From contig JAEUKB010000025.1 in NCBI GenBank assembly GCA_016794365.1, forward strand, positions 244,693 through 308,692: a DNA stretch of 64,000 nucleotides. Reading direction: 5' to 3'. A model generated the notes under the pieces. The model worked only from the letters and a program-made list of their open reading frames with translations, was not told the origin of the DNA and searched no databases. This DNA is from Myxococcales bacterium. Its GTDB lineage: Bacteria > Myxococcota_A > Polyangia > Palsa-1104 > JAEUJZ01. Made by a program: the position numbers and the translations under genes. Shown here one piece after another: positions 2,449-15,709 of the stretch. Within the stretch, counting starts at the first letter, position 1. Every line of letters starts with the position of its first letter.

Positions 2449-3870
2449 TTAGTCTTCGATGTGAAGTCGGCGATTGTTGACTTTGCTCGGTCGAGTCTTC
2501 TTGCTGGTTGATGGCACAGGCTTCTTTGTGCCAGCGTCGCTTCGCTTGCTGCTGACCGCGCTGCTGTTGGCCACCGGACGGGTCGGTGTGCTCTGCGCAG
2601 CGACGGGCTGCGGAGTCGGCAAAGGAGTCGGTTCCGGATCAGGAATCACCGCTTTCGCTGGGCTCTGTTCCTGTGGCTGCGCGGGCAGAATCACCGCTGG
2701 CTGCGGTGGTAGCTGCATCGCTTCCTTGCGCCGATTGAGCTGAAGCGTTGCAAGCACCAGCACCACACTGAGGACTCCCAAACCCACAGAGGCCAGCAGG
2801 ATTCTGCGCGGCTTGCGTGCGTGCGCTTGACCGGCTGCGCGACCGATTGTCGATGGAAGCACTGGTTCATCGCTGACCAGTGTCACCCCGCGAATGACCT
2901 GCATCCCTTGGCTCAGCCGTCTGCGCGGACGCGGATGTCGCTCACGCATCGCTTCCAGAAGCTCTGCTGCTTCCAGCATGCTGGGCCGCTTGGTGCGATC
3001 TTTTTCTAACAGCCGCAGCACAAGCTGAGAAAGCTCCGCAGGACAGCCTGGCGCACGCTCTGCGATGGGCGGAGGCGGTTCGTTTAAGTGCTTGACGATC
3101 AGCTCTCCGATTCCTTCTCCCTCAAACGGAGGCTTGCCGGTGATCATCTCGTACAGGATCACACCCAGCGAATAGACATCGGTCTTGGCATCAACTTTTC
3201 CAGATCCCTGCGCCTGCTCTGGAGACATATAAAACGGAGTCCCAATCATCGCGCTGGTCTGGGTCTTGACGCTTGCGCGATCACTTTTTCCGGCCAGCTT
3301 GGCGATTCCGAAGTCCAGCACTTTGGTCCGTTCTCCCGTCGCCATCTGCCGATCAGGAACGACCATGATGTTGTCTGGCTTCAAGTCTCTATGAATGATG
3401 TCGCGCGCATGTGCGGCGGCCAAAGACTCTGCAACCAGTGCGGCCAGATCAATGCACTCACCAATCGCGAGCGGCGCGTTGCGATGGATGCGTGTGCGCA
3501 GAGACTCTCCCTGCAGCAGCTCCATCACGATGTACGCGGTTCCGTCTTCTAGTCTTCCGTGATCAGAGATCTGGACCACGCCCGGATGATCGATGCGATT
3601 GGCTGCGCGCGCTTCATTGATGAAGCGAGTCGCGGTGTCTGGATCATGCGAGTAGCGCGCATGCAGCATCTTGATCGCGACCTTGCGCTCGATGGCTTCA
3701 TTGAAGCCTTCATAGACCGCACCCATCCCACCTGCGCCCAGCTTGCGGATGATTCGGTACGGACCGATCCGCTCCGGCATGGGCGGCTCTTGGCGGCGGA
3801 CAAAGTCTTGGCTTTCCGAAGACTCGGTAGGAACCGGACTCTGTCCCGAGGTTTCATCTAGGTCGGCCAT
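2449..3870 (-). CDS. Hanks-type Ser/Thr protein kinase, membrane-anchored, Pro-rich C-terminus
   Basis: Motifs GAGGMGAVY, AIK, HRDLKPDNIMV, DFGIAK, GTPFYMSPE, then a TM helix (ILLASVGLGVLSVVLVLATL) and a Pro/Gln-rich tail. Start placed at the MADLDETSGQ Met upstream of the glycine loop. Confidence 0.85.
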   Translation of the reverse strand: MADLDETSGQSPVPTESSESQDFVRRQEPPMPERIGPYRIIRKLGAGGMGAVYEGFNEAIERKVAIKMLHARYSHDPDTATRFINEARAANRIDHPGVVQISDHGRLEDGTAYIVMELLQGESLRTRIHRNAPLAIGECIDLAALVAESLAAAHARDIIHRDLKPDNIMVVPDRQMATGERTKVLDFGIAKLAGKSDRASVKTQTSAMIGTPFYMSPEQAQGSGKVDAKTDVYSLGVILYEMITGKPPFEGEGIGELIVKHLNEPPPPIAERAPGCPAELSQLVLRLLEKDRTKRPSMLEAAELLEAMRERHPRPRRRLSQGMQVIRGVTLVSDEPVLPSTIGRAAGQAHARKPRRILLASVGLGVLSVVLVLATLQLNRRKEAMQLPPQPAVILPAQPQEQSPAKAVIPDPEPTPLPTPQPVAAQSTPTRPVANSSAVSSKRSDAGTKKPVPSTSKKTRPSKVNNRRLHIED

Positions 3871-4217
3871 CAGTTCCGCTGATATGCATGTGCCGCGCCA
3901 CGCTCTCTGATTTGCGAAAATTTGTGCTGGACAGCGACGAAAACGGATGGTGTCGAAGTGCTCTGGAAGACTGATTCCTATCCTGCGACTGCGTTGTAGA
4001 AAAGTGCGCGCAAGCAGTGTGCGAGCAGTGCGCGCGCAGTCCCAAAGGAAGCCGTCATACAGGCTGTTCACGAGCTAGATTTTTCGTCGCTGACAACCAA
4101 CTGTGCGCAGCACATTCTGTGGCCCCAGATGGTGGCTCTCGTACGTGGTCGAGAACTTGCAATGTATCTGGTGACAGAGACTCGCACGCACGAGTGCTCC
4201 GTACGGTTGGACATGTG

Positions 4218-4635
4218 ATGGACGGACTGGATCAGATCTTTGGTAGTTATCAGGTCGTACGGCTGCTCGGTAAGGGTGGGATGGGCTCTGTCTATGAAGC
4301 TCGTCACACGACACTGGAGCGTCGCGCCGCAATCAAGGTCTTACACAAGGAATTTTGTGAAGACCCCGAGGTACTCAAGCGCTTCATGAACGAAGCGCGC
4401 GCGGTGAACATCATCGGACACGCGGGACTCGTCGCAGTGTCCGAGTTCGGCCAGACCAAAGAGGGTGCTCCCTACATTGTGATGGAGTACATCGATGGCA
4501 TCACGCTGCGCGAATACATTCGTCGCGCCGGTGGCCACCTGAGTGTCGAGCAGGTGATTCGACTGTCGCGTCAGATTGCTTCTGCACTCGCTGCCGCGCA
4601 CGCCAAGAAGATCGTCCACCGAGACCAAACGCCAG
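4218..4635 (+). pseudogene. N-terminal half (subdomains I-VIb) of a Ser/Thr kinase, truncated immediately after HRD
   Basis: GKGGMGSVYEA, AIKVLHK, YIVMEY, AKKIVHRD, then non-kinase read-through (QTPADFPSRSEC...) into foreign AT-rich DNA. The complementary C-terminal half is at ~10230. Confidence 0.8.
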
Positions 4636-4717
4636 CGGACTTTCCGTCGCGAAGTGAATGCCAGATCCGGGCAGGGGAAACGCTGCAAAAATCGCCAATA
4701 CGATCCCGGCACAGCGC

Positions 4718-4816
4718 GAATGAATACACATTCAGTAAAATGATTGAAAGTTCATTTTGATGAGCAAATATTCATTGTGATGAGCATGGCTTCAGTATAC
4801 TGAGTGAGTATTCAGT
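4718..4816. promoter_or_regulatory. Putative TetR operator/promoter region: AT-rich with palindromes
   Basis: Perfect 12-bp palindrome TCAGTATACTGA (4792-4803). GAATG-N6-CATTC (4718-4733). TGAATAC/GTATTCA inverted copies (4721-4727, 4807-4813). All lie just upstream of the tetR start at 4831. Confidence 0.4.
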
Positions 4817-4830
4817 CTGGAGCCCATGTG

Positions 4831-5469
4831 ATGCGCAAGAGTGATCCAATCGCTGTTCAGCTGGCCGATGCGAGGAAGAACCAGATCCTAGACGCTGCAA
4901 CCCAGGTGTTTGCGGATCGCGGCTTCCATGCTGCGACCATCAAGGACATCGCCCAGCAAGCCGGAGTTGCCGACGGAACGATCTACCTGTACTTCAAGAC
5001 CAAGGCAGATCTGTTCGTTGGCATTCTCGATCGGCTCAATGAAACAGAGCGTCGCGCCGTGGACCTATCGGCAGCGGTGCCAACAGAAGCAGACTTCCGC
5101 GAGTTCTTTGCGACGTACATGCGGAAGCGCCTGTCGCTGCTGGAAGAGAACCTGCGGACGTTTCAGGCGGTCATCCCGGAGCTGCTTCAAAACCGAGAGC
5201 TGCGCGAGCGCTACCTGACCGAGATCCTGGAGCCGAGCTTTCGGATCGCTGTGCCGCTCATTGGCAAGCGCCTTCAGCCTGCACTCAAGCGCAAGGTGAG
5301 CGTCGAGCTGGCTGTTCGTACCATCCCGAGCATGGTGCTGGGCATGCTGATCTTGCGAATGCTTGGTGATCCTACCGTCGAGAAATCATGGGCGGAGCTG
5401 CCAGACCTTTTGACGACGATGCTGTTCGATGGCTTCTGGTCCCAGTCACAGAGGGGGAAAAAGAAATGA
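4831..5469 (+). CDS. TetR-family transcriptional regulator
   Basis: N-terminal HTH ILDAATQVFADRGFHAATIKDIAQQAGVADGTIYLYFKTKADLF is the TetR_N signature. Its stop overlaps the P450 start (ATGA). Confidence 0.85.
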   Translation: MRKSDPIAVQLADARKNQILDAATQVFADRGFHAATIKDIAQQAGVADGTIYLYFKTKADLFVGILDRLNETERRAVDLSAAVPTEADFREFFATYMRKRLSLLEENLRTFQAVIPELLQNRELRERYLTEILEPSFRIAVPLIGKRLQPALKRKVSVELAVRTIPSMVLGMLILRMLGDPTVEKSWAELPDLLTTMLFDGFWSQSQRGKKK

Positions 5470-6719
5470 CCGCACTGTCTGTTGAACGAGTTCTGTCTTC
5501 ACAGCCTGGCAACCTGGTCGATATCACAGGGTCCGATTGGAAGGCCGATCCGTTTCCGTTCTACGCACAGCTTCGACAGCACAAGCCGGTGCTGCGCGTA
5601 CGAATGGGACGAATGGAAGGCTGGCTGATCACGCGCTATGACGATGTGGTTTCGGTGCTGCGTGATCCTCGGTTTGTCAAAGATGTACGGAAGATTGCAG
5701 CGGCGGCAGAGCTGTCGCGGCGACCGTGGGTTCCGTCGTTTCTGCATGCGCTCGAACAGAACATGCTGGATCAGGATGCGCCGAACCACACGCGGCTGCG
5801 GACGCTGGTTCACAAGGCGTTTACTCCGACGCGAATTGAGCAGCTACGGACGCACATTCGATCGCTGTCAGAAGGAATCCTTCATGGGCTGAAACAGAAG
5901 CCGAAGTTCGATCTGGTGGCCGACTTTGCGCTGCCGCTTCCGCTCACGGTGATCTGCGAGCTGCTTGGGATTCCTGAACAGGAAAGGAGTCTGTTTCAGC
6001 GTCTGTCCCAGCAGGCGTTGCTGCCTCCTACTACGCTGAACATGGTGCGGCTGATGCCCGCAATGTGGCGGCTGATTCGCTACATTCGTCGTCTGCTCGC
6101 GCTGCGCAAGCAGTCCCCCCAAGATGATCTGCTGACCGCGCTGTCCCATGCAGAAGCAGCGGGTGACACGCTGAGCGAAGATGAGCAAGTGGCCATGGTG
6201 ATGCTGCTCCTGATTGCTGGACATGAAACGACGGTGAACCTGATCTCGTCGGGAATGCTGGCGCTCCTTGATCATCCAGAGCAGCTTGCATGGCTGCGCG
6301 CGCATCCAGAAGGAATGAAGACAGCGGTCGAGGAATTGCTGCGCTACTGCAATCCGGTAGAGACTGCGACCGAGCGCTACGCAGCAGAAGCGATGACGAT
6401 TCAGGGACAGCCGATTCGCCAAGGAGAGCTGGTCATCGCGTCGCTGGCATCGGCCAATCGCGATGAAACGCACTTTCCGAATCCAGAAGTACTGGATCTG
6501 AAGCGCGAGCCGAATCGCCACTTGGCGTTTGGTCAGGGCAGTCACTTTTGTTTGGGCGCGCCGCTTGCGCGGATGGAAGCTCAGATCGGGCTGGGAGTCC
6601 TGATCGAGCGGTTTGCAGCGCTGAGACTGGCGGTTCCTCGGGACAAGCTGCGCTGGCGGAACACGCCGGTGGTGCGCGGGCTCAAGGCGCTGCCGCTCAT
6701 GCACGCGATCACGCGGTAA
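5466..6719 (+). CDS. Cytochrome P450 monooxygenase
   Basis: Heme-binding loop FGQGSHFCLGAPLA, I-helix AGHETT, ExxR (EELLRY), about 417 aa. Confidence 0.9.
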   Translation: MTALSVERVLSSQPGNLVDITGSDWKADPFPFYAQLRQHKPVLRVRMGRMEGWLITRYDDVVSVLRDPRFVKDVRKIAAAAELSRRPWVPSFLHALEQNMLDQDAPNHTRLRTLVHKAFTPTRIEQLRTHIRSLSEGILHGLKQKPKFDLVADFALPLPLTVICELLGIPEQERSLFQRLSQQALLPPTTLNMVRLMPAMWRLIRYIRRLLALRKQSPQDDLLTALSHAEAAGDTLSEDEQVAMVMLLLIAGHETTVNLISSGMLALLDHPEQLAWLRAHPEGMKTAVEELLRYCNPVETATERYAAEAMTIQGQPIRQGELVIASLASANRDETHFPNPEVLDLKREPNRHLAFGQGSHFCLGAPLARMEAQIGLGVLIERFAALRLAVPRDKLRWRNTPVVRGLKALPLMHAITR

Positions 6720-6845
6720 TCGCTGGCGCGGTTCATCGTTTCACGCGCTGCAACAGCACCTTTCATGGACTTGCGTTGTGGGTCGCTGCGACGTGCCCTA
6801 CCTTTGAAAGGAGTCCAGACAGACAAAGGAAGGAGAGCACGGACA

Positions 6846-7481
6846 ATGAAGATTGCATTCATTGGGGCGGGAAGAGTCGGAGCCCCGTTGGCCATTCGAC
6901 TGGCCGATGCAGGACATCAGGTTGTACTGGCGCAGACTGCGGATGGTTCCGAGACGGTGGCTGCGGCGCTGTTGCGGAGTCAGAGACTCTCTGCACAGCC
7001 ACTTGGTGCAGCGATACAGGATGCAGAGGTTGTGTTTCTTGCGACGCCCTTTCCGGTGGTCGAAGCGCTGCTTGCTCCACTTGCGGATGCGCTTGCGGGC
7101 AAGGTGCTGGTCGATTGCACCAATCCCGTCGGGCCCGGACTGTCTCACGGACTGGGAAGTCAGCGATCGGGCAGCGAGCTGATTCAGTCGCTTGTCCCGC
7201 GTGCGCACGTCGTCAAAGCCTTCAGCATCTATGGATTTGAAAACCTGGAAGATCCTTCGTATCCGGCCTACAGCACCAAGCCGGTGATGCTCTTTTGCGG
7301 AGACGATCCCAGCGCCAAGCAGATCGTTCGTACGCTCATCAGTGACTACGGGTTTGAGCCGCTGGATGTCGGGCGACTGGTTCAAGCGCTGCACCTTGAA
7401 CACATGACGCTTCTGTGGGTTCGCATGGTCCGCGCAGAAGGTCACTCTCCGCACATGGTCTGGGCTTCGCTCCGACGATAA
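6846..7481 (+). CDS. NADP-dependent oxidoreductase, F420-dependent NADP reductase / pyrroline-5-carboxylate reductase-like Rossmann family
   Basis: MKIAFIGAGRVGAPLAIRLADAGHQVVL dinucleotide-binding fold at the N-terminus. About 211 aa. Confidence 0.6.
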   Translation: MKIAFIGAGRVGAPLAIRLADAGHQVVLAQTADGSETVAAALLRSQRLSAQPLGAAIQDAEVVFLATPFPVVEALLAPLADALAGKVLVDCTNPVGPGLSHGLGSQRSGSELIQSLVPRAHVVKAFSIYGFENLEDPSYPAYSTKPVMLFCGDDPSAKQIVRTLISDYGFEPLDVGRLVQALHLEHMTLLWVRMVRAEGHSPHMVWASLRR

Positions 7482-7580
7482 TTTCCTGCGCTGATTCCAT
7501 TCCCTTTTCCTCTGGAAGACACTCCTTTTCCACCAGGTGTGACGGCGTGGAAAAGTCGCCCGCTGCTTCTCGACGCAGTG

Positions 7581-7606
7581 CTGATCCACCGAGATCTGAA
7601 GCCGGT
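7581..7606 (+). other. Orphan kinase catalytic-loop remnant (encodes LIHRDLKPV) in intergenic DNA
   Basis: ctgatccaccgagatctgaagccggt translates to LIHRDLKPV. No other kinase subdomains are present on either side. Sits between the oxidoreductase and esterase genes. Confidence 0.6.
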
Positions 7607-7757
7607 AAAGCTTATATTCCGTCGAGAATTGGCTTCCTGACTTCCGCGCGCTCGTCTCTTTGGCAAGCGGAACTGGGTCTGCGATTCCTTGTGTGCGTGG
7701 ACAGTGCTGGCGTCTTTCTGGCTTCGCAGGTAGGGTTCGCTCTCAAAAGGAGTCTGT

Positions 7758-8663
7758 ATGATCCACGCTGCTCGAAGTTGTCTGTTGGTGGCTGGGCTCT
7801 CTGTTGGGCTGCTTGCGTGCGACGCTGCATCTTCTGTGGATGCTGATCCCGCTTTGAGCATGGCTCCGAGCCGAGAGACTTCCAGGCTGATCATGTCGCG
7901 TCCGTACAAGTACAAAGTCCCCAAAGGATACGATGCGACAAAGCCCACTCCGCTTGTGGTGATGCTGCATGGTCTGTCTGCCAGCGGAGAGCTGAACGAG
8001 CTGGTCCTGCACCTGTCCCCTCTTGCTGATGAGCGAACGTTTCTGTACGCATATCCCGACGGCACCAAGAATCCTGTTGGCGCGCGCTTTTGGAATGCCA
8101 CCGATGGCTGCTGCGATTTTTTTGGTAGCAAGGTGGACGACGTTGCGTACTTGACTGCGGTCATCGATGATCTCTCGAGTCAATACAATGTCGATGCCAA
8201 GCGGATCTTCTTAGTGGGACACTCGAACGGTGGCTACATGGCGCATCGCATGGCCTGCGATCGCAGTCCGAAAATCGCTGGCATCGTCAGCTTGGCTGGC
8301 GGTCAGTGGATCGACTCGAGCAAGTGCCGTCCAAGCAGCAAAGTGTCGGTGCTACAAGTCCACGGTACTGCCGATACCAATGTTGCGTATGAGGGCACAC
8401 CACTGACTCCTTCTGCGCATCAGACCGTCGCCATCTGGGCCGATCGCAATGCCTGTCTTGGACCCCTTACATTTGGCGGAATCCGAATCGATATTGAGTC
8501 CACACTGGCCGGTGCAGAGACCAAGGTCGAGTCCCATTCCGGCTGTGCGAAAGAGGGCGCTGCCGAGCTGTGGACCATTGAAAAGGGAGGACATATTCCC
8601 TCTTTCAACACCAAGTGGCCTGGTGCCATCTATGACTTTCTGATGGCGCATCCGAAGCCCTGA
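7758..8663 (+). CDS. Secreted esterase/lipoprotein of the PHB-depolymerase-like alpha/beta-hydrolase family
   Basis: Signal peptide with a lipobox-like LLAC. VVMLHGLSASGE and the nucleophile elbow LVGHSNGG. Acidic and His residues downstream. Confidence 0.7.
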   Translation: MIHAARSCLLVAGLSVGLLACDAASSVDADPALSMAPSRETSRLIMSRPYKYKVPKGYDATKPTPLVVMLHGLSASGELNELVLHLSPLADERTFLYAYPDGTKNPVGARFWNATDGCCDFFGSKVDDVAYLTAVIDDLSSQYNVDAKRIFLVGHSNGGYMAHRMACDRSPKIAGIVSLAGGQWIDSSKCRPSSKVSVLQVHGTADTNVAYEGTPLTPSAHQTVAIWADRNACLGPLTFGGIRIDIESTLAGAETKVESHSGCAKEGAAELWTIEKGGHIPSFNTKWPGAIYDFLMAHPKP

Positions 8664-8895
8664 TATCTGCATCGCTACGCAGCCAGAAGAGGAGTCGTTT
8701 GGATCGCAATAGGAATGGTTTGATGTGATGACAGCGACGTGGAGTCCTGGCAGCAGGATGCGTACAGGTGATGAAACAGGAGTGCTGGACTGCGCTGTAG
8801 GAACTGCGCGTTAAAAAAAGCTACGCAACCAACGCGCTGAGTACGCGATACTCCTCATGTTTCGCCACGCTGCAAGCATTTCAGGGGACTGATCC

Positions 8896-10083
8896 ATGTC
8901 GTTTGACAGTGCGCTCAAGAAGGCTGCCGTACACCCCTTTGGCCCATCGAATGGGGCGGTTCCCAAGTCTGTCGCTCCACCTCCCTCTGCACTGCAACCG
9001 ACCGCTGCGCCACCGCCCGCCGCAGCGTCCTTTGTGCAAGCCAAGACGAGTCAGGCACTCTCTAGCTTGTTTGGATTTATGACGGACACGGCAGGTGCTG
9101 CCAAAGCGGCTCCGCAGGCACTGGCCAAGCAGGGACCGTCGCTGGCCTCGAAGGCTGGATCGACCCCTGTTGGGGAGTCTGTTTCCCAAGCTGCGCCCAG
9201 TCCACAGAAGGCTGAGCAGGCCGCCAAGATGGCAGCGCAGACGCTCGGAAAAGCGTCTCCTCCTGATCAGAAAGTCGCGCTGGCTGCGAAGATGGCCGCG
9301 AAGGCTACGCATCCAGAAGCGCCCTCCGAACAGAGAGCCGCGCTCAAGGAAAAGCTCGCAGCGGCGGTCAAAACGGTTCCTGATGGAAAGAAAGCAGAGC
9401 TGGCAAAAAAAGTTGCAGCAGCGACGGCAGAAAAGGACGCTCCTTTCGCAAACAGAGTCGCTCACTTTGCATCGAACCTACGTGGTGGCGCACCAGCATC
9501 CGCACAGGCTCCGCTGCCGCAGACGGTCGGCGCTGGCCCAAATGCAGAGGAAGAGGATCGCAAAATCCTCGATGTCGATTTCCAGCAGCAGGAATGGGGG
9601 CACTGGTGTGGGCCTGCCTCGACGCGGATTGCACTGTCAGCGCGGATGGACAATCCACCAAGTCAGCAAGCGCTGGCTGATCAGCTGGGTACACACGGGG
9701 GCGGAACAGATCACATCGGACTGATTACCTCGGTGCTCAACGATCAGCTGGGCACTGGCTATTACGAAAACAAGCTGATTCCTGGTGCAACTGCGACGGA
9801 TGAAGAGCGCGATCTGCTCTGGAAAGACATCGTCACAGACATCGACAACAACTATCCGATCGTTGCCAACATTGTCGCACCACCGAGCAATCATCCCGAT
9901 GGTTATCCAGACGACGAGACGATTTATCACTATGTAAGCATCATTGGATACGACAAGAGTGATCAGGCTGCGCTCGTCGCTGATCCGGCCAAATTCAATC
10001 ATCGCCCTGGCTTTCAGTCACAGTACTGGATGGGGATCGATAAGCTGGCAGACTTGATTGCGCGCAAGGGCTATTCCGCGTAA
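8896..10083 (+). CDS. Protein with Ala/Lys/Pro-rich repeat N-terminus and C-terminal papain-like (peptidase C39-like, PF13529-type) domain
   Basis: The C-terminal ~170 aa contains QQEWGHWCGPAS (candidate Cys nucleophile) and ETIYHYVSIIGYD (His). The N-terminal 220 aa are low-complexity A/K/P with repeated KMAA/KVAA units. No signal peptide. Confidence 0.5.
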   Translation: MSFDSALKKAAVHPFGPSNGAVPKSVAPPPSALQPTAAPPPAAASFVQAKTSQALSSLFGFMTDTAGAAKAAPQALAKQGPSLASKAGSTPVGESVSQAAPSPQKAEQAAKMAAQTLGKASPPDQKVALAAKMAAKATHPEAPSEQRAALKEKLAAAVKTVPDGKKAELAKKVAAATAEKDAPFANRVAHFASNLRGGAPASAQAPLPQTVGAGPNAEEEDRKILDVDFQQQEWGHWCGPASTRIALSARMDNPPSQQALADQLGTHGGGTDHIGLITSVLNDQLGTGYYENKLIPGATATDEERDLLWKDIVTDIDNNYPIVANIVAPPSNHPDGYPDDETIYHYVSIIGYDKSDQAALVADPAKFNHRPGFQSQYWMGIDKLADLIARKGYSA

Positions 10084-10229
10084 CGCAAGACTGCGCGCGA
10101 AAATGCCGAGGCTCTGCTTATCGGCAGGTGCTGCTTGTCCGCCCAGGTCTGGATTCGCAGCGCATTCCCACAGACTTCCGCAGTGCTGCCAAGAATGATG
10201 ATTTTCCGTCGAGCAGACTGCGATCAGAG

Positions 10230-11099
10230 CTTCAGCCGGTGAACGTCATGGTGGTGACGGATGAATCGAGCGGACAGCAGGATCTGGTCAAGGTGCTCGA
10301 CTTCGGGATTGCCAAGCTCAGCGCCGAATCGACCAGCCAGACCAAGTCGGGCGTGCTGATGGGAACTCCCACCTATATGTCACCAGAGCAGTGCCGGAGC
10401 GGGCGCAATGCGGTGGATCGCAGCGACGTGTATGCGCTTGGTATCATCATGTACGAGATGCTGGCCGGAGCGACTCCGTTTCGGGGTGGACCCGCTGCGC
10501 TGATGATCGCGCATCAGACCCAAGATCCAGCGCCGCTTGCATCGAAAGCTCCGCATGTCTCTGCGGAACTGTGCGCGCTCATCCATCGAATGCTGGCCAA
10601 GAGTCCCGCAGAGCGTCCGACTGCCAGTGAAGTGGTACGGAGTCTGTCTCCGCAAAGTGGACAGATGTCGCAGATCTCGCAGTCGCATCCGCTGATCAGT
10701 AGCAGCATCCAAGCCGTTGCGTTTCAGGATCTTCCGACGGCAATACAGGGAACAAATCCCGCCAGTGCTTCTCTGCTGGGATCGATTCCCAGACAGCGCA
10801 GAGGAACGCTCATCGGAACGGCTGCGGCCTTGGTGCTGATCCTGGGACTTGGTGGACTGTTTGTGCTTCTGACGATGACAGGAAAGGGAAGCGGAGTCTC
10901 TACCTCAGACCTTGGGATGCGCAAAGATGCGGTCATTGTTCCTTCAGATCTTGGGGTTCCTGCTGGATTGTCAAAGCCAGATCCTACAAAGGAAACTGGC
11001 CAGTCCGATCCAGCTCTGCATGGCAAAGCAGAGCGAACCAGCCTCAACAAAGGGAATCGCAGCAAGACTAAGTCGGGACTTCGCCGCTCCACAAAATGA
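10230..11099 (+). pseudogene. C-terminal half (subdomains VIb-XI + TM tail) of the split Ser/Thr kinase
   Basis: LQPVNVMVV, VLDFGIAKL, GTPTYMSPEQ, DVYALGIIMYEML, then TM LIGTAAALVLILGLGGLFVLL. Begins exactly where the 4218 fragment stops. Confidence 0.8.
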
Positions 11100-12021
11100 T
11101 CGTGCGTGCGCTGCGCGGCTGCATTGAAGGACTCGGTCCGCTGTATAGCGGAACGTAGCCCAGGAACTGATTGGGACGCAGCACCATGAAGCTGCGCTGA
11201 TCGCGCAAGATCAGCGATACTTCCAGATACACACCATGACGAGCCAGCAGGGGAAACACCTGCTTGAGCAGGCGCTCGCTGGCTTCCTTGGCCCACGGCG
11301 TTCCGTTTCCGGTCACTGCATCGTCGCTGAGCAGCTTGATCGCAATGGCAGAGACAGGCACAAACGCCACGGCTCCCAGCACAGCACCACTACCAATGGA
11401 CCAGGTTCCCACTTGGATGCCGCGCGTTCGGACAGGACGCTGAAGAGTCGTGCGCGCAATCGAAACTTCCAGCTCGGGATAGAGCTGTGAAAAGACAAAG
11501 TGAACCGTAGACAGACTGCGGATTCCGAGCAAGCTGCGCAGCTGTCCCACGGTCTGGGTGAAGTCAGCAAAGAGGCTGGGATCGCGCTCTGGGAACTGTG
11601 CTTCTACGCTTCCGCGCAGCAGCCGGTGCGCAAAGAAGTTCAGAAAGTCGGTCAGCGTTCCTTCATGCTGCGCATCCAATGCGGCGCGAAAGTAGGAAGG
11701 GAGCAAGCTCTGGGAAGACAGTAGACCCAGGTTGAGCGTGACAATGACTCGTCGCTGCGGGGTCTCGGACCACTCTACTTTGGACACCACCGCAGCCTGA
11801 TGCGTCTGGGTCGCATGACTGCGGAACTCGATCTGATCGCTCTGATAGCCCAGCTCATGCAGTGCATCCAGAAGTGCTCCCAGAGAAAAGCGAACAGCTC
11901 GTTCGCTAATGATGCGTCGCTTGCGATCAAACACTGACTCTGGAACAGGAGCCGCGATTCCTGCTTGGGCGCTGCGTGGTCCTTTGACGATGTCCTTGGG
12001 CGGACGTGGTGGCTGCGGCAT
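11068..12021 (-). CDS. tssG: T6SS baseplate protein TssG (ImpH family)
   Basis: VTLNLGLLSSQSLLPSYFRAALDAQHEGTLTDFLNFFAHRLL matches the TssG core (tvnF.GL.G..g.LP..yte......dg.l.dFld.F.HR). About 317 aa. Confidence 0.7.
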   Translation of the reverse strand: MPQPPRPPKDIVKGPRSAQAGIAAPVPESVFDRKRRIISERAVRFSLGALLDALHELGYQSDQIEFRSHATQTHQAAVVSKVEWSETPQRRVIVTLNLGLLSSQSLLPSYFRAALDAQHEGTLTDFLNFFAHRLLRGSVEAQFPERDPSLFADFTQTVGQLRSLLGIRSLSTVHFVFSQLYPELEVSIARTTLQRPVRTRGIQVGTWSIGSGAVLGAVAFVPVSAIAIKLLSDDAVTGNGTPWAKEASERLLKQVFPLLARHGVYLEVSLILRDQRSFMVLRPNQFLGYVPLYSGPSPSMQPRSARTIILWSGEVPT

Positions 12022-12024
12022 GAC

Positions 12025-13485
12025 TTATCGCTCACTGTCTGCAACAAAGCGATGCACATCGGATCGACACAGGAGCCGCAGCATCTCTGTCTCGAGATCT
12101 TCGCTGGGCTTTAGGTGTGGCTCTAGCTTGCTGCTGTGCTGGATGAGCGCCAGCAGATAGTCAATCAAGAGCGTAGGAAAGTAGCGCGACGGCTCAAACC
12201 CTTGGAGCTTCTTTGCGATGTGCTGTTGCAAGATGGCGGCTCTGCGATAGCGCTGCTTGTTGACCAGCCGCACAAAGCCCGCCAGTTCTGCGAGCAGTAG
12301 CTTCAGCTCTGACCCGAGCGGAATGCTGAGCGTCTCTGCGGCATGACTGGATGGAGCAAGCGCGCTCGGAGCAGCTGCTGGATCCGCTGCCGATGCGGTG
12401 GTCAGCACTTGTGGTACAGGCGATGTACTTGCTTTGTGCGGATCGGCTGCGGATGCATCTACGCTGTCATCATCGCTGTCATCATCGCTGTCATCATCGC
12501 TGTCATCATCATCGCTACGACTTTCCGGTTCGGCTGACTGGTCGCTTCGGCTGTCTTCCGGTTCAGAGTCTTCTTCCTCTTCCTCTTCCTCTTCCTCTTC
12601 CTCATCGCGGGCTGCGTCTTCTTCGTCCGCATCGGTATTGTCTCTTGACTTCGTCTCTGCATCATCGGAGTCCTCGTCCGATTCCTCGTCCGACTTGTCA
12701 TCGTCATCTGAATCGTCATCGGAATCATCATCGGAATCGTCGTCGGAATCGTCATCGGAGTCATCATCTGAATCGTCATCGGAATCATCATCGGAGTCAT
12801 CATCGGAGTCATCATCGGAGTCATCATCGGAGTCATCATCGGAATCATCATCCTTCTTGGGCTCGTCGTCTTCTCCAGGTGGTGGCGGCGGAGCAGGAAT
12901 CTGCGTGGCTCCTTTCAGATCCCAGCCCGCGTTGGCTGCGGGCGCTTGCGCAAGTCCCTGTAGGAGCGATTGAAGGTGGAGCAGCGGCTGCTTGCTGCGT
13001 GAGCCCGGAATGAACTGATCCAGCGTCTCTAACAGCTTGTTGCAGTGCTCCAGAGCTTGCGCTTGCGCGGCATGCTGCCAGTCATGATTCCACTTGGTCC
13101 ACAGCTCATCTTTTTGACGTTCATGAAAGCGAACCTGCGACACGATGCTGTCAAACAGCCAGCGCAGCGAGACATCCAGATGGCGTTCTTTTTTGATCGT
13201 TGGACTCAGGTACGCAAGGTTGTCTGCGATGGCGCGACGAATGCATTCAAACAGCAGACTGAGCGACGCAACACCTCGCTCGACAAACACGCCGAACAGA
13301 TAGCAGCCGATCGTGCGGACATCGTAGATCTGCTGCTGCCAGAGCTTTTGGGCGCGCTCTGCTGCGGGAAGATAGCGATTCTGACTGGTCAGAGACAGGA
13401 TCTCATCCAGCTCGCGATCTTCGATCCCCAACTCGCGCTTTCCCGGCGCTGAGAGGATCTGCTCAAGTGGCTCCGTAACGATCAT
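12025..13485 (-). CDS. TssA-like (ImpA_N-like N-terminus) protein with giant poly-acidic (DDDS)n/(E)n insert
   Basis: The N-terminal EPLEQILSAPGKRELGIEDRELDEI resembles the ImpA_N motif LL.PIS...P.G.DL..D.EF. The central ~130 aa are DSDDDSDDD... and E12. The C-terminus is helical. Tightly linked to tssG. Confidence 0.35.
   Translation of the reverse strand: MIVTEPLEQILSAPGKRELGIEDRELDEILSLTSQNRYLPAAERAQKLWQQQIYDVRTIGCYLFGVFVERGVASLSLLFECIRRAIADNLAYLSPTIKKERHLDVSLRWLFDSIVSQVRFHERQKDELWTKWNHDWQHAAQAQALEHCNKLLETLDQFIPGSRSKQPLLHLQSLLQGLAQAPAANAGWDLKGATQIPAPPPPPGEDDEPKKDDDSDDDSDDDSDDDSDDDSDDDSDDDSDDDSDDDSDDDSDDDSDDDSDDDDKSDEESDEDSDDAETKSRDNTDADEEDAARDEEEEEEEEEEEDSEPEDSRSDQSAEPESRSDDDDSDDDSDDDSDDDSVDASAADPHKASTSPVPQVLTTASAADPAAAPSALAPSSHAAETLSIPLGSELKLLLAELAGFVRLVNKQRYRRAAILQQHIAKKLQGFEPSRYFPTLLIDYLLALIQHSSKLEPHLKPSEDLETEMLRLLCRSDVHRFVADSER
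12440..12850. repeat. 12-bp tandem coding repeats (tcatcatcggag / tcatcatcgctg) plus (ttcctc)n
   Basis: Visible runs of 12-bp units at ~12459-12520 and ~12700-12850 and (ttcctc)n at ~12560-12600. They encode the poly-acidic tract on the minus strand. Confidence 0.8.
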
Positions 13486-13885: not shown

Positions 13886-15709
13886 CTACTTCCGAAGGGA
13901 TGCTGCGCGCATCGCGATCAGACCCGCTGGCGTACTGATGCGATGACACGCAAGGATCAGTCGATCAATCAAGTTGAGCGCTGGGTCTTGCGCCCGCTTA
14001 TCCAGCTGTCCTTCTCGATGCTGGCCGGCACACCAGCCGTAGTCGATCGCGCCGTCTTTGGTACGCGGCAGCGCAGCCAGCAGCCGAACGGAGTTGGGCT
14101 CAAAAGACGGTCCCAGGCGCTGACGAATCTGTTCCCGGATCTTGTGCTCTACCTGTATTCGCTTGGTCGCTGTCATACGCCGCATGTGTGGTCCCAAAAA
14201 CACCAGAAAGCTCGCCCTTCCTTTGTCACTCTGTTCGGGAACCAGGACGGCTCCAGCGACGTAGGGAAGCTCTTGGGTGACTGCTTCTACTTCGGTTGCA
14301 CCCAGGCTGTGTCCGCCACTGGAAGGCCAGCGCGTTCCTCCGTACAGATAGCCTCCGTTGTGTTCATAGAGCAGCAGCCCGCAGGCCCCCGGAATCGGTC
14401 GCAGGATTCCGTTTGTACCGCGCGCGGGCTGATCTTCGGCTTGGGGATCGCACAGCGAAAACGGACGACCTGGCGACGGATAGACAAGCTGTGGGGGCGT
14501 ACCCCGCTGCGGCAGAGAGAACAGCAGACAGCCCGCACTTGCTGCATCGTAGTGCCAGCAGCGCACAGGCGTTTTCTCTAGCTCATACTGCGCAGACCAG
14601 TCCTTCCAGTTCAGTGTGTCACTGGCTTCTGTAAAGGCACACAGCCATGATCGCACACCCCGCAGCGGAGCCGCTCTGTGCAAAAGCAGTTGGTCGCGTA
14701 GTAGCGGCTCCACCAGCAGAATATCGACGGGCGGCAGCCGACTTCCCAAAGAGACAAGCTGCGCTGCATCCAGGTGAAGGTAGGTTCCGCCATGCAGCAA
14801 AACCAGTAGAAGGAGTGTCGGCTGATACTGAAGGAGTCGATGCTCTGGCGCGCACACCACGGTGCCAAACTGCGCGGGCTGAATCCCCAGAATCAGTCCA
14901 TCACAGAGCGCACCCAGATAGGCAGAGGACGCATTGACAGCAATGGGAATCCAGCCCGGATCGCGCTGCGGAGAAAACAGCGCAAACAGCGCATCACTGG
15001 CTCCGTAAGGACGCGATCCAAGTGATGTGGTAGCAGGGCTACTTTCCAGCTCTGCGGCGGCTGCCATCGTCTGTTCGGCTTGCTGCGGATGAATGATGAT
15101 CTCTTCGAGCAGTGCATCAGCGAGCGGAACCGCTTGCGGTCCGTACCACTCCTTGAGCAGCGGGTGATAGCGTCGAGCCGTGACAATGTGCTGCGGTCGC
15201 AGTGCGCGCAAGCGATTCGCCAGAAAGTCCGCACCTTGCGGTGGCAGAACCGAGACAACGGCGCCCACACGCAGCGCTGCACACAGCGCCAAAAGCAGCT
15301 CTGGACCCAGGGGATAGATGATGCAGAGGATGTCTCCTGCTTGGACCCCGCGCTTGCGAAAGGAGTCCGCGACAAGCGCTGCTGCGGCATGCAGGTGGCC
15401 ATAGGAAATGGCGCAGAGCGGCTCTGATTCCTTCTGTCCTACAATCGGTCCTTCCGTCGCATACAGCATGGCTGGGCGGCTTCCGTATGGACCCAGTGCG
15501 TGCCGTGCGACTGCATCATGATACAGATCAAAGGCCATCCCAAGCTGGCTCTTGGCTGGCGCTACGCTCAGTCGCGCGGCCTGCTGCATCAGCGCTTCCG
15601 CAAAGGCCGCTGGACTGCGCAGACTCTCTGCCAGCCAAATTCGGTCACGCATGACACCATCGCCAGGCTGCTGTAACTGCAAACGAACTGCATCAAGAGA
15701 GATCATCAT
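13886..15709 (-). CDS. Divergent ANL-superfamily adenylate-forming (AMP-binding) enzyme-like protein
   Basis: The C-terminal subdomain motifs are recognisable: YGGTRW..GGHSLGATEVEAV (Y-G-x-T-E), VLVPEQSDKGRASFLVFL, LPRTKDGAIDYGW (A10-like PKTxSGKI). The N-terminal substrate region LCIIYPLGPELLLALCAALRVGAVVSVLPPQG is present. The P-loop (TSGTTGxPKG) is degenerate. Confidence 0.5.
   Translation of the reverse strand: MMISLDAVRLQLQQPGDGVMRDRIWLAESLRSPAAFAEALMQQAARLSVAPAKSQLGMAFDLYHDAVARHALGPYGSRPAMLYATEGPIVGQKESEPLCAISYGHLHAAAALVADSFRKRGVQAGDILCIIYPLGPELLLALCAALRVGAVVSVLPPQGADFLANRLRALRPQHIVTARRYHPLLKEWYGPQAVPLADALLEEIIIHPQQAEQTMAAAAELESSPATTSLGSRPYGASDALFALFSPQRDPGWIPIAVNASSAYLGALCDGLILGIQPAQFGTVVCAPEHRLLQYQPTLLLLVLLHGGTYLHLDAAQLVSLGSRLPPVDILLVEPLLRDQLLLHRAAPLRGVRSWLCAFTEASDTLNWKDWSAQYELEKTPVRCWHYDAASAGCLLFSLPQRGTPPQLVYPSPGRPFSLCDPQAEDQPARGTNGILRPIPGACGLLLYEHNGGYLYGGTRWPSSGGHSLGATEVEAVTQELPYVAGAVLVPEQSDKGRASFLVFLGPHMRRMTATKRIQVEHKIREQIRQRLGPSFEPNSVRLLAALPRTKDGAIDYGWCAGQHREGQLDKRAQDPALNLIDRLILACHRISTPAGLIAMRAASLRK

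Follow-up and report, generated by a model that had tools for sequence, protein, structure and literature searches.

A Hanks-type kinase gene beside a type VI secretion cluster, interrupted in its catalytic loop by two tandem cassettes

Introduction

How does a Hanks-type Ser/Thr kinase gene come to lie in two pieces around unrelated genes, and do those pieces represent a dead gene, two genes, or one gene that can be restored? The question is raised by positions 4218-11099 of the 64-kb stretch of DNA from an uncultured Myxococcales bacterium analysed here (the window). They hold a single such gene, whose catalytic-loop codons (HRDLKPVN) are interrupted by two cargo cassettes in tandem, E1 and E2. 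The preliminary description of the locus was sound in its observations, since a check of sequence and Pfam matches recovered every feature that it described. The kinase and its neighbours are as follows.

2449..4071, minus strand: divergent intact Ser/Thr kinase, left neighbour of the split gene (Pfam Pkinase 1-258)
4218-11099, plus strand: interrupted Hanks-type Ser/Thr kinase gene, flanking the type VI secretion (T6SS) cluster
4218..4625, plus strand: N-terminal kinase fragment (MDGLDQ...KKIVHRD), Pkinase profile 1-123
10239..11099, plus strand: C-terminal kinase fragment (VNVMVV...DFG...SPEQ..., transmembrane segment, basic tail), Pkinase profile 124-259
11068..12021, minus strand: TssG (PF06996), first gene of the adjacent T6SS cluster and conserved right neighbour

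One kinase in two fragments

The reading frame at 4017-4760(+) encodes the kinase N-lobe; its kinase part stops at ...AAAHAKKIVHRD at 4625 and is followed by unrelated E1 sequence up to 4760. The kinase is picked up again within the frame at 10128-11099(+), at ...LQPVNVMVVTDE..DFGIAK..GTPTYMSPEQ. The two pieces match Pfam Pkinase (PF00069) as exact complements, and deletion of both cassettes at their flanking repeats yields a perfect, gap-free ...KKIVHRDLKPVNVMVV... frame of 425 aa that is colinear with orthologues, so that the earlier reading of one kinase split in its catalytic loop is supported. In the window the catalytic-loop lysine is absent from both pieces, which read HRD-QTPA and LQPVN, respectively. 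Between the halves, Pfam recognises TetR_N, p450, F420_oxidored/NAD-binding, Esterase_PHB/Abhydrolase and Peptidase_C39_2, accounting for all of the intervening genes previously named (tetR, P450, oxidoreductase, esterase and C39-like peptidase). Beyond TssG, the T6SS cluster (~11-34.5 kb) comprises TssF, TssK, VipA/B, IcmF, DotU, IglE and a PAAR-like gene.

Two cassettes and their boundaries

The cassettes, their cargo and the short direct repeats that delimit them are arranged in the following order.

4615..4624, plus strand: R1, left copy of the 10-bp direct repeat TCCACCGAGA (HRD codons)
4625-7594, plus strand: cassette E1, 2,970 bp counting one repeat copy, with TCCACCGAGA at both ends
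4719..4802, plus strand: AT-rich, operator-like repeats with 20-nt spacing, upstream of tetR (repeat families D1 and I6)
4804..5469, plus strand: TetR-family regulator, E1 cargo (PF00440, E 7e-19)
5466..6719, plus strand: cytochrome P450, E1 cargo (PF00067, E 2e-33; 415-417 aa in related contigs; frame open from 5388, 5466 being the probable start)
6846..7481, plus strand: NADPH-dependent F420-reductase-like oxidoreductase, E1 cargo (PF03807; TIGR01915 npdG-like, below its cut-off)
7585..7594, plus strand: R1', right copy of TCCACCGAGA
7585..7606, plus strand: orphan remnant between E1 and E2, consisting of HRDLKPV codons of the kinase itself (TCCACCGAGATCTGAAGCCGGT)
7600..7606, plus strand: R2, left copy of the 7-bp core AGCCGGT (KPV codons)
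7607-10240, plus strand: cassette E2, 2,634 bp counting one repeat copy, with AGCCGGT at both ends
7758..8663, plus strand: secreted esterase with lipoprotein-type signal, PHB-depolymerase-like, E2 cargo (PF10503, PF02230; NF050058-like, below its cut-off)
8896..10083, plus strand: C39-like cysteine peptidase with Ala/Pro/Lys-rich N-terminal region, E2 cargo (PF13529, E 1e-19)
10234..10240, plus strand: R2', right copy of AGCCGGT

The E1 site lies 5 bp upstream of the E2 site, and the orphan catalytic-loop remnant reported earlier (CTGATCCACCGAGATCTGAAGCCGGT, LIHRDLKPV, 7581-7606) supplies ...HRDLKPV... in frame once both cassettes are deleted in silico. It marks the boundary between two separate modules, in agreement with the suggestion of a composite, two-step accessory insertion. 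For either cassette, recombination between its two repeat copies leaves no scar and rebuilds the kinase, including the catalytic-loop lysine. That lysine is affected by a cassette base, the C at 10233 before R2', which changes its codon from AAG to CAG (Gln); the corresponding C is also present in L002 and L006, and intact alleles have Lys.

The preliminary description had placed the insertion boundaries at the TTCCGTCG / GAyTTTCCGTCG repeat. Its 12-mers GACTTTCCGTCG (4638-4649), TATTCCGTCGAG (7615-7626) and GATTTTCCGTCG (10200-10211) are all present, but they represent a conserved motif inside the cassette ends, the actual boundaries being the 10-bp and 7-bp kinase-codon repeats. Likewise, joining at the 12-mer does keep the frame, with 14 extra residues (HRD-QTPADFPSSRLRSE-LQPVN), but the 12-mer is not the crossover point. 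As to whether TTCCGTCG is simply frequent, its 14 occurrences in the window against 2.55 expected amount to a roughly five-fold enrichment, read as genome-wide; yet three plus-strand copies, each ~20 nt or less from a kinase-derived junction, are far beyond chance (~1e-7, our estimate from the observed TTCCGTCG density).

Among sister species the cassette ends have ~50 nt in common at the left end and ~80 nt at the right end, around an A box (ACTTCCGCAG) and a B box (TTCCGTCGAGAA) that keep one orientation throughout and are direct at both ends. In E2, the left end consists of 10 nt, the B box (7617-7628), 11 nt and the A box ACTTCCGCG (7640-7648), and the right end of the A box (10174-10183), 18 nt, the B box TTTTCCGTCGAG (10202-10213), 20 nt and a final ...TC (10233). 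Between lineages, gap-free identity over the final 80 nt ahead of the right core is 50-60%, falling to 25-30% further in, with the boxes much better conserved than the intervening spacers. E1, seen in this species only, has a different, "class II" left end, with a decayed LKPV-like mimic CAAACGCCAGCG (4626-4637), 4 nt and the B box TTCCGTCGCGAA (4642-4653), and this end type recurs in another kinase gene (L027) and in proteins P0136, P0177 and P0152. The sole plus-strand sigma70-like match of the promoter scan (4744-4772) lies upstream of its tetR. Representative loci totalling 132.7 kb contain 16 copies of the B box against ~0.6 expected, 7 of the 16 within 150 nt of split junctions; the box is over-represented away from junctions too and may therefore be a general host motif.

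Independent assemblies and alternative junctions

The exact 211-aa product of the E1 reductase is encoded on 14 contigs. Of the eight listed, four, from different samples and assemblers, hold E1 and E2 at 98-99% identity, two of these spanning the N-terminal to the C-terminal fragment, and the remaining listed contigs cover parts. The E1+E2 arrangement is thus repeated across samples and is not a misassembly, as had been a concern earlier; in other parts of their sequence, however, some of the MEGAHIT contigs are chimeric.

Other contigs carry rearranged orders. L012 reads 7524-7594, 4615-10240, 7600-7718, with end-to-start junctions of both E1 and E2, and L013 reads 7488-7594, 4615-9495, with that of E1. 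Such junctions in contigs of several samples mean that the cassettes also exist as circles or tandem copies, two forms that look alike in contigs. Logan contigs, assembled at k=31, end exactly at repeat edges (L016, 4615-7594; L001, 7600-10240; L015, 4595-7629), so that L012, L013 and L016 coincide at the E1 repeat. Strain SNPs at 7607 and 7631, considered as a cause of the Logan contig ends, do not explain them.

Intact alleles, unrelated cargos and other kinases

An intact allele of this species (P0140, 425 aa) differs from the double-deletion reconstruction by 2 residues and represents a third haplotype, identical to neither split strain. Intact alleles of the L002 lineage comprise P0163 (429 aa, 113-kb contig), P0157, P0148 and L007; L007 matches the C-fragment of L002 at 100% over 367 nt and its N-fragment with 1 mismatch in ~250 nt, the two being joined at AGCCAGT. 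In the P0007 and P0008 lineages, too, intact and split forms occur, on contigs as long as 100 kb. Altogether, four lineages have intact and split alleles and a fifth only split ones, and precise removal of the cassette is seen in two lineages or more; where the flanking DNA could be compared (L002 lineage), it is nearly identical. The left-neighbour kinase is retained in L002, L009-L011, L020 and L021, and in L020 and L021 one intact kinase lies between it and TssG, rather than the two independent half-genes that had been envisaged as an alternative. Split alleles are the commoner form in assemblies (P0141, for instance, on 36 contigs). One further locus, L008, is a possible natural recombinant.

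The 7-bp core also borders the insert on both sides in L002 and in L022 combined with L006, and it is exactly 7 bp in all three lineages. At this same site L002 carries one 554-aa MIDAS/vWA-like lipoprotein, and L022/L006 a TetR with membrane and secreted proteins, including minus-strand genes in L022; tblastx found no similarity among the cargos of the E2, L002 and L022/L006 lineages. Furthermore, elements with the same B box cut other kinase genes in the same loop. Junctions in other kinases fall at differing positions (HR|, HRD|, HRDLKP|, HRDLKPVN|, DFGIA|), insertions affect several kinase genes, apparently in both orientations, and the present kinase gene has a second frequent breakpoint (..HRMLAK|S). 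In a related insert, L028, an HNH endonuclease-like ORF adjoins the junction.

Selection on the two halves

All 36 of the differences between the N-fragment and L022 (in 408 nt) are synonymous; dN/dS is 0.038 for the N-fragment against L002 and 0.04-0.07 for the kinase part of the C-fragment in comparisons with the window and with L005. The controls gave 0.13-0.17 (TssG) and 0.155 (the neighbouring kinase). These values (0-0.07) argue for strong purifying selection on both halves, and no frameshift or internal stop was found in the kinase in ~20 copies.

Comparison with known systems

Gene-intervening elements ("regulated gene integrity"), such as skin in sigK, SPbeta in spsM and gin in gerE of Bacillus, or those in nifD, fdxN and hupL of heterocystous cyanobacteria, are flanked by short direct repeats of 5-16 bp. 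As here, a multi-kb insert lies in a regulatory or developmental gene between short direct repeats, and precise recombination restores the reading frame. To our knowledge, however, every such element encodes its own serine or tyrosine recombinase, which the present cassettes lack. They also differ in that cargo varies between sister species while site and ends stay constant, and in their target, the catalytic loop of a Hanks kinase in Myxococcota. Stacking of integrative elements in tandem at a single site, as here, is on record (PMC7192596). The text of the TIGER survey mentions neither kinases nor Myxococc*.

Integron gene cassettes are similarly recombinase-less, variable in cargo and arranged in tandem, each with a 7-bp core repeat, a conserved 3' end region, circular free forms (here suggested by the junction contigs) and an enzyme supplied from outside. 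However, the core is AGCCRGT here and GTTRRRY in integrons, the ends do not fold into attC-like hairpins, the cassettes can be multigene with their own regulator, promoter and minus-strand genes (L022), and the platform lies inside a gene instead of at an attI site; a scan of ORFs across the window revealed neither IntI nor any tyrosine recombinase.

IMEX elements, Xer/dif modules and the CIME "accretion" arrays next to ICEs likewise lack their own recombinase, the enzyme being host- or neighbour-encoded, and are often tandem at one site; the present site is, in contrast, not a dif-like 28-bp sequence, has no conserved XerC/XerD-type half-sites beside the core, and is part of the coding sequence for a catalytic motif. 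Homing elements (inteins, group I/II introns, free-standing homing endonuclease genes) share the preference for the least variable codons in conserved families of enzymes and, with L028, an HNH endonuclease-like ORF by the junction. Nevertheless, the inserts here consist of several unrelated genes, mostly without an endonuclease, and intron or intein features were absent, with no Rfam match at E<=1 and stop codons after the junctions.

Interpretation and alternatives

On balance, we lean towards site-specific cassettes, mobilised in trans, that interrupt the kinase recurrently or reversibly. The cassettes would form a non-autonomous family of site-specific integrative elements that enter and leave as circles, by conservative recombination over a short fixed crossover (7 bp for the E2 type), with a recombinase supplied from elsewhere in the genome and the A and B boxes as putative accessory binding sites; the kinase would remain functional because its interruption is recent, recurrent or reversible. 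Mobilisation in trans fits the absence of any recombinase or transposase from cassette cargo and antisense ORFs, an absence that the preliminary description had recorded correctly for transposases. Several points count against this reading: the intact alleles, instead of being excision products, may come from strains that escaped insertion; junctions vary in other kinases; no dyad symmetry is conserved around the 7-bp core on inspection (matching arm positions 7/11 in E2, 2-3/11 in L002 and L022/L006), whereas tyrosine- or serine-recombinase core sites normally show it; and no candidate enzyme was found, the window containing just one truncated serine recombinase, which lies behind a group II intron at a distance of 47 kb. 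Moreover, the E1 repeat differs from that of E2 and is longer, so that one enzyme with one crossover site does not explain both.

An alternative that we regard as unlikely, though deserving of weight, is that of non-autonomous transposons ("mobile insertion cassettes"), which resemble the present elements in carrying passenger genes without a transposase between ends flanked by short duplications, and in being moved in trans by a transposase encoded elsewhere. The kinase would simply be inactivated, the 7-bp and 10-bp repeats would be target-site duplications, the intact alleles would be strains never hit, and the end-to-start junctions would reflect copy-out/paste-in circle intermediates with a spacer of one target-duplication length. 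The constant 7 bp in three lineages, the circle-type junctions, the enzyme-less cassettes, the several kinase genes hit in apparently both orientations and the second breakpoint all accord with this. Against it, end alignments reveal no consistent terminal inverted repeats, the ends being asymmetric with boxes in direct orientation; unrelated cargo on the same 7 bp in three lineages would demand near-absolute target specificity, and such cross-species fidelity and scarless empty sites with near-identical flanks set the cassettes apart from mobile insertion cassettes; E1 and E2 would require unequal duplication lengths; and plain inactivation leaves the low dN/dS of both halves unexplained, unless the insertion is very recent.

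Distinctly less probable is an explanation without dedicated machinery, in which an old insertion serves as a landing pad with cargo turnover by ordinary insertion and deletion, alleles are swapped between strains by homologous recombination via the flanking kinase and T6SS genes, and slipped or unequal recombination at the short repeats produces tandem duplications, seen as the alternative junctions. End identities of 50-60% are near the neutral orthologous expectation at the observed dS of 0.5-0.9, breakpoints favour conserved kinase motifs, L008 may be a recombinant, and the kinase-like mimic of E1 could have integrated via short homology; the recombination between kinase paralogues proposed earlier is unneeded for E2-type elements and survives only as a possible origin of this mimic. 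Nevertheless, no homology remains in the insert interiors, whereas the ends align in register and free of indels, the boxes are far better conserved than the spacers, the same B box by junctions of unrelated kinase genes indicates independent events, and removal is precise in at least two lineages, with near-identical flanks in the L002 lineage. Additionally, RecA recombination, with minimal processing segments of ~20-30 bp, is not efficient at repeats as short as 7-10 bp.

That the halves form a stable two-piece kinase, or separate proteins such as an N-lobe decoy and a membrane-anchored C-lobe, would explain the purifying selection on both pieces and the prevalence of split alleles, but is very improbable. 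The cut lies inside the catalytic loop, whose lysine is in neither window piece, and four lineages retain intact alleles. In the L005/L006 lineage, inspection revealed an in-frame stop 4 codons upstream of QPVN (P0010), which would force the C-terminal piece to start at the Met after the loop asparagine, and neither a conserved start codon nor a ribosome-binding site was found for this piece. Finally, a dead pseudogene or assembly artefact, suggested by the lack of an intact ORF in the window and the risk of misjoins in metagenome-assembled genomes, is refuted by the repeated contigs with their exact junctions, by dN/dS far below 1 and by the ~20 undamaged copies.

Biological meaning

The locus looks like an active, possibly reversible gene interruption of an undescribed type. 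If the interruption by site-specific cassettes is indeed recent, recurrent or reversible, these cassettes would provide an on/off switch for a T6SS-linked kinase, or at the least a polymorphic knock-out of it.

A kinase gene interrupted by two tandem cassettes

At this locus, a kinase gene linked to a type VI secretion system (T6SS) is interrupted recurrently and at a precise position by interchangeable cassettes without a recombinase gene, and the interruption is polymorphic across species. In the window, two such cassettes in tandem, E1 and E2, split one Ser/Thr kinase gene into an N-terminal and a C-terminal part (N-piece and C-piece), each cassette being bounded by a direct repeat of kinase codons:

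4017-4760, + strand: kinase N-lobe ORF (N-piece), ending ...AAAHAKKIVHRD, Asp codon at 4623-4625, then unrelated sequence
4615-4624 and again 7585-7594: HRD codons, TCCACCGAGA, the 10-bp repeat bounding E1
4625-7594: E1, 2,970 bp, with tetR, P450 and reductase genes
7600-7606 and again 10234-10240: KPV codons, AGCCGGT, the 7-bp repeat bounding E2
7607-10240: E2, 2,634 bp, with esterase and peptidase genes
10128-11099, + strand: kinase C-part ORF (C-piece), resuming LQPVNVMVVTDE...DFGIAK...GTPTYMSPEQ, then a transmembrane tail

The Pfam Pkinase profile (PF00069) is matched over 1-123 by the N-piece and over 124-259 by the C-piece, and the genes between encode a TetR regulator, a P450, an F420/NADP-type reductase, a PHB-depolymerase-like esterase with a lipoprotein signal and a C39-like peptidase, which confirms the preliminary description of two kinase halves separated by five accessory genes. 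In the metagenome-assembled NCBI 'Myxococcales bacterium' genome, the pieces are MBL8632666.1 (N-piece) and MBL8632672.1 (C-piece), with five genes between them. When both cassettes are deleted at their repeats, the rebuilt empty-site DNA reads ...GTCCACCGAGATCTGAAGCCGGTGAACGTC... and encodes a 425-aa ORF (...KKIVHRDLKPVNVMVV...) that aligns colinearly and without gaps to intact orthologues and matches a natural allele, P0140. Only after both in silico deletions do GxGxxG, VAIK, HRDLKPxN, DFG and SPE lie in one polypeptide. Because the final base of E2 is a C, the Lys codon of the catalytic loop becomes a Gln codon where E2 ends on the right, and the deletion restores Lys.

The three 12-mers containing TTCCGTCG and the orphan LIHRDLKPV remnant reported earlier are present where they had been placed, and the remnant is the kinase's own HRDLKPV stretch, stranded between E1 and E2. 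The proposed join at the 12-mer does keep the frame, but it leaves 14 extra residues, so this repeat is not the crossover point. A count of TTCCGTCG, proposed as a check, identified it as an enriched word (14 occurrences in the window against 2.55 expected), a density that does not explain three copies each lying beside a kinase-derived junction. Comparison with relatives supports a single gene as well: two loci (L020, L021) carry one intact kinase, 56-73% identical, in the same place, between a divergent kinase and TssG, the first gene of the type VI secretion cluster, which extends to ~34.5 kb in the window. Altogether, the earlier observation and its main interpretation hold, and the locus is more remarkable than was described.

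The arrangement is no misassembly and recurs in independent assemblies. The E1 reductase is found on 14 contigs; among the eight listed, four, from different samples and at 98-99% identity, hold both cassettes, two of these four span the locus from N-piece to C-piece, and the other shown contigs are parts of the same arrangement.

Some features of the neighbourhood may be recorded here. The C-piece and TssG converge with a 32-nt tail-to-tail overlap (11068-11099), and the called kinase and TssG genes overlap likewise in every related locus, those with a split and those with an intact kinase alike. The T6SS cluster (11-34.5 kb) is unusual in having an IglE-like gene, a PAAR-like DUF4280 gene and an AMP-binding enzyme among TssB/C/F/G/K/L/M; it also contains two very large proteins without a Pfam match (23190-27896 and 27900-30014). 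A sigma54 activator lies at 34841-36454. Within the cluster, a 486-aa protein (12025-13485, - strand), likewise unmatched in Pfam, has very long Asp/Ser/Glu repeats (DSDD...), and its position is kept in four related loci (L005, L009, L010, L020).

The same site, other cargo and other kinases

In a sister lineage, L002, whose flanks show 77-79% nucleotide identity, the N-piece ends in HRDLKPV, the C-piece resumes at QPVN, AGCCAGT stands at both junctions, and the cargo is a single 554-aa lipoprotein with a MIDAS/vWA-like start. In a further lineage (L022/L005/L006, 82-86% identical), a TetR regulator, small membrane proteins and a secreted protein lie between two AGCCAGT copies. Identity between left and right junctions is exactly 7 bp in all three lineages, and tblastx found no cargo similarity between the inserts. 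Scans of genome and metagenome contig collections with TssG yielded no more than three loci, each of which stops close to the junction or short of it.

Other kinases are affected too: their N-pieces break in or near the loop (HR|, HRD|, HRDLKP|) or after DFGIA, and in several of them B-box-like sequence (the B box is a conserved cassette-end motif, detailed below) stands just past the break. One insert, seen in L028 and L029, lies in a different kinase gene, P0134, and a 105-aa HNH endonuclease-like ORF (L028 3461-3778, - strand; CxxC...ECHH...CANCHRLIH; PHROG E 2e-6) adjoins its junction; nothing comparable occurs in the other cassettes. Tested as an inverted element, L028 gave weak box matches (8/10, plus one indel).

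Anatomy of the cassette ends

The left end of E2-type cassettes consists of the 7-bp core AGCCRGT, 10 nt, the B box yyCCrTCGAsAr (TTCCGTCGAGAA in the window), 11-13 nt and the A box CTTCCGCrs; the right end reads TCCCnCnnACTTCCGnA, ~20 nt, TTTyyCGwCrAG, ~20 nt, ...TC and core. All A and B boxes are in direct orientation. Over their final 80 nt, the right ends show 50-60% gap-free identity, against 25-30% further inside. The ends are homologous and in register, although the cargo is unrelated. The left end of E1 is of a second type, in which the HRD codons are followed by a decayed LKPV-like mimic (CAAACGCCAGCG), 4 nt and the B box; it recurs in another kinase gene, L027, again behind the HRD codons, and can be recognised in the tails of three proteins (P0136, P0177, P0152). 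Repeat length is exactly 7 bp for the E2 type in three lineages and 10 bp for E1, and left junctions are followed by stop codons.

Comparison by eye of the termini of three lineages revealed no consistent terminal inverted repeats (5/6 matching positions in window E2, AAAGCT/GAAGCT; 2/6 in L002; 1/6 in L022/L006). No significant attC-like or HUH-type hairpins were detected at the cassette ends (single-strand fold z -1.9 to +1.3), dyad symmetry round the 7-bp core is not conserved between lineages, and Rfam gave no match at E<=1 in 4000-11300. At reconstructed circle junctions, arm complementarity by inspection is 7/11 in window E2 and 2-3/11 in L002 and L022/L006. The right end was also considered as a decayed copy of the 3' part of the kinase and rejected, the alignments being no better than shuffles (z 0.5-0.9).

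Scanning for promoters and terminators gave background level except for one site upstream of tetR. There, at 4719-4802, AT-rich, operator-like repeats with 20-nt spacing and partial dyad symmetry coincide with the sole + strand sigma70-like match in the 7-kb region, so E1 looks like a self-regulated operon.

In these genomes, the 12-mer of the B box shows ~25-fold enrichment that is not confined to junctions. The cassette-end motif (TTCCGTCGAGAA with at most one mismatch) occurs inside or at the edges of unrelated genes, at 15452-15485, 22297-22333, 47814-47847, 23130, 39464 (-), 42298 (-) and 46713 (-). A bipartite form, TTCCGWCG-N12-30-CTTCCG, has four occurrences against 0.06 expected, those at 15452, 22297 and 47814 lying inside minus-strand genes. 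Since the enrichment extends beyond junctions, the B box may serve a host factor as binding site instead of marking the element, or these copies may be scars of former insertions. Matches of the left-end motif in viral contigs were set aside, as their number (107) is, by our own estimate, about that expected by chance for 17 specified bases.

Intact and interrupted alleles side by side

In the species of the window, the protein cluster at 90% contains P0140, an intact 425-aa kinase two residues off the reconstruction. The L002 lineage has the intact alleles P0163 (429 aa, on a 113-kb contig), P0157 and P0148, and in one of its contigs, L007, the intact stretch, joined at AGCCAGT, shows 100% identity with the L002 C-piece across 367 nt and differs from the L002 N-piece at one position in ~250 nt. 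The lineage of P0008 has intact 430-aa proteins beside 291-aa C-pieces and N-pieces that stop right after HRDLKPV (one of the latter, P0171, on 16 contigs of up to 106 kb), and that of P0007 has intact 440-aa proteins beside two kinds of N-pieces on contigs of 84-101 kb. Among the sequences found for the L005/L022 lineage, only split forms occur. Split forms are commoner than intact ones in the assemblies, P0141, for example, being present on 36 contigs.

A second common breakpoint of the same kinase was noted in the L002 lineage at ...IHRMLAK|S (L007 817-899), where L007 departs from L002 right after CTGGCCAA into A/B-box-like AT-rich DNA; a 173-aa ORF starting MLAKSPAERP (P0161) is called on 105 contigs.

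Signs of ongoing recombination

Two contigs from different studies carry cassette ends joined to cassette starts. The MEGAHIT contig L012 consists of 7524-7594, 4615-10240 and 7600-7718 in that order, and L013 of 7488-7594 and 4615-9495; the E1 end thus runs into the E1 start over a single TCCACCGAGA (...GCAGTGCTGATCCACCGAGACCAAACGCC...), and the E2 end into the E2 start over a single AGCCGGT (...GAGCTTCAGCCGGTAAAGCTT...). Such contigs imply that molecules with these junctions exist and, as far as assembled sequence can tell, require circles or tandem copies, which are alike at contig level.

Logan contigs, which are unitig-based (k=31), break at the repeat edges: L016 covers 4615-7594 and L001 covers 7600-10240. 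L015 (4595-7629), from the same run as L001, overlaps it by 30 nt and starts 30 nt ahead of the first base past the E1 repeat, which is what the presence of an E1-free allele would give. Strain SNPs at 7607 and 7631 were rejected as the cause of these contig ends, because they predict other break points.

Several contigs are mosaic. L008 is 100% L002-like until ~255 nt past the core and 95-99% window-like thereafter; it was considered as evidence of horizontal transfer of a cassette and left unused, a chimeric assembly being most likely. The first 370 nt of L012 are foreign and of higher GC, and both ends of L007 are foreign or mosaic; from these two contigs, only internal junctions were used, each backed by independent contigs. 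The mosaics in L008 and L012 are a caution for single-contig inference from these MEGAHIT assemblies. Two short contigs (L007 1-205; P0005, P0129) switch the kinase N-terminus at ...RF(L/V)NEARAVNII, probably through chimeric assembly between kinase paralogues at a conserved motif, the alternative being natural gene conversion.

Selection on the kinase pieces

Table. Selection on the kinase pieces and controls; all lineages compared carry the interruption.
Gene part; comparison; result
N-piece; window vs L002; dN/dS 0.038 (dS 0.90)
N-piece; window vs L022; 36/408 nt differ, all synonymous
C-piece, kinase part; window and L005 pairs; dN/dS 0.04-0.07 (dS 0.5-1.0)
TssG (control); same lineages; dN/dS 0.13-0.17
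Neighbouring kinase (control); window vs L002; dN/dS 0.155

The low dN/dS of both pieces, together with zero frameshifts or internal stops in ~20 copies, indicates that the kinase gene is not decaying. Either the kinase works intact much of the time, the interruption being reversible or very recent and recurrent, or the pieces are functional on their own. The cut in the window strips the loop lysine from both pieces, and an in-frame stop in the L005/L006 lineage forces the C-piece to start past the loop asparagine, so independently working pieces are unlikely.

What moves the cassettes

Searches with Pfam, NCBIfam and PHROGs detected no recombinase or transposase in the cargo and antisense ORFs of E1, E2, L002 and L022, nor did 57 long ORFs of the window, all but a few of those of at least 180 aa, include a tyrosine recombinase. 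The only such gene in the window, a truncated serine recombinase behind a group II intron (56.8-59.4 kb), is 47 kb away and not credible as the source. As an observation in its own right, the intron directly precedes the recombinase ORF (56764-59431, + strand; ORF 58478-59431, with the Resolvase profile over 77-143 only, plus a Recombinase domain) and is marked by Rfam RF01999 (56764-56883), RF00029 (58517-58592) and an RT/maturase ORF (57064-58557); its insertion site may have been a decayed integrase gene or the DNA beside one.

We infer that E2-type elements are non-autonomous, site-specific integrative cassettes whose enzyme is encoded elsewhere, because they combine a fixed 7-bp crossover or duplication with asymmetric conserved arms bearing direct-orientation boxes, and because empty sites are scarless, cassettes stack in tandem and circle-type junctions occur. 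E1 has the look of a derivative in which a short stretch of a former host's catalytic-loop DNA is copied, and it would have entered 5 bp upstream, via the HRD codons. The main rival is a transposon mobilised in trans, which fits the fixed 7 bp and the circle-type junctions, yet inverted termini are absent. Allele exchange by ordinary homologous recombination, without a dedicated enzyme, is a third option. For the locus as a whole, there is evidence for current recombination and for selection keeping the gene whole; the cassette mechanism and any regulatory role are what we infer.

Beyond this, integrative cassettes may be part of a wider, host-run platform in Myxococcota, a proposal that we advance tentatively and consider rather doubtful. 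The catalytic-loop codons of Hanks kinases would serve as attachment site; a recombinase encoded elsewhere, recognising cassettes through the A and B box arms, would insert and excise recombinase-less cassettes with interchangeable cargo; and individual kinases, here a T6SS-linked one, would be switched reversibly off and on while accessory genes are shuffled, intact and interrupted alleles being maintained side by side in several species.

Relation to known systems and significance

The nearest functional counterparts come from spore formers and heterocystous cyanobacteria, whose gene-intervening elements ('regulated gene integrity') likewise lie in a coding sequence between short direct repeats and restore the ORF on precise excision. 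Those elements encode their own recombinase, which is a defining feature, so the present cassettes, which have none, fall outside the class. Excision of such elements is typically regulated or cell-type specific; for the present cassettes, the contig junctions and breaks fit circles, with tandem copies as the alternative. With integron cassettes, the elements share a 7-bp core per border, recombinase-less variable cargo, tandem order and circle-type junctions. What separates them is the lack of an intI gene among the ORFs scanned, of attC hairpins and of the GTTRRRY core (the core here being AGCCRGT). If the platform proposal is true, the system would combine integron-like cassettes with regulated gene integrity.

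Mobile insertion cassettes, Xer/dif modules and homing elements each have one or two traits in common with the cassettes and differ in the others. A Xer dif-like site has two ~11-bp inverted half-sites with a 6-8 bp spacer, whereas arm complementarity reaches 7/11 only in window E2, so dif-like half-sites are not conserved. Features of self-splicing introns or inteins are lacking, and the cargo consists of ordinary genes. PpkA-type T6SS kinases are encoded with the T6SS genes and act through an FHA-domain partner and a PP2C phosphatase; the link shown here is one of synteny, and neither partner came up among the ORFs scanned.

In the literature searched, no report was found of mobile elements that target kinase catalytic-loop codons or of myxobacterial gene-intervening elements. 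Should the cassettes move as proposed, no earlier gene-intervening elements would be known to us from Myxococcota, none aimed at the catalytic loop of a protein kinase, and none that pair interchangeable cargo with the lack of a recombinase of their own.

What the data indicate is an enzyme, recombinase or transposase, with a short recognition site inside one of the most conserved coding motifs in biology. The proposal is testable through the 7- and 10-bp sites, the conserved arm motifs and the natural empty and filled alleles of four lineages, and public read sets should hold junction reads. Even on the most cautious reading, that of a target-specific mobile element knocking out the kinase, the repeated use of a single insertion point by unrelated cargo across species is unusual. 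If the cassettes move as proposed, hosts with hundreds of kinases could toggle single pathways, here one tied to the T6SS, at the level of DNA.
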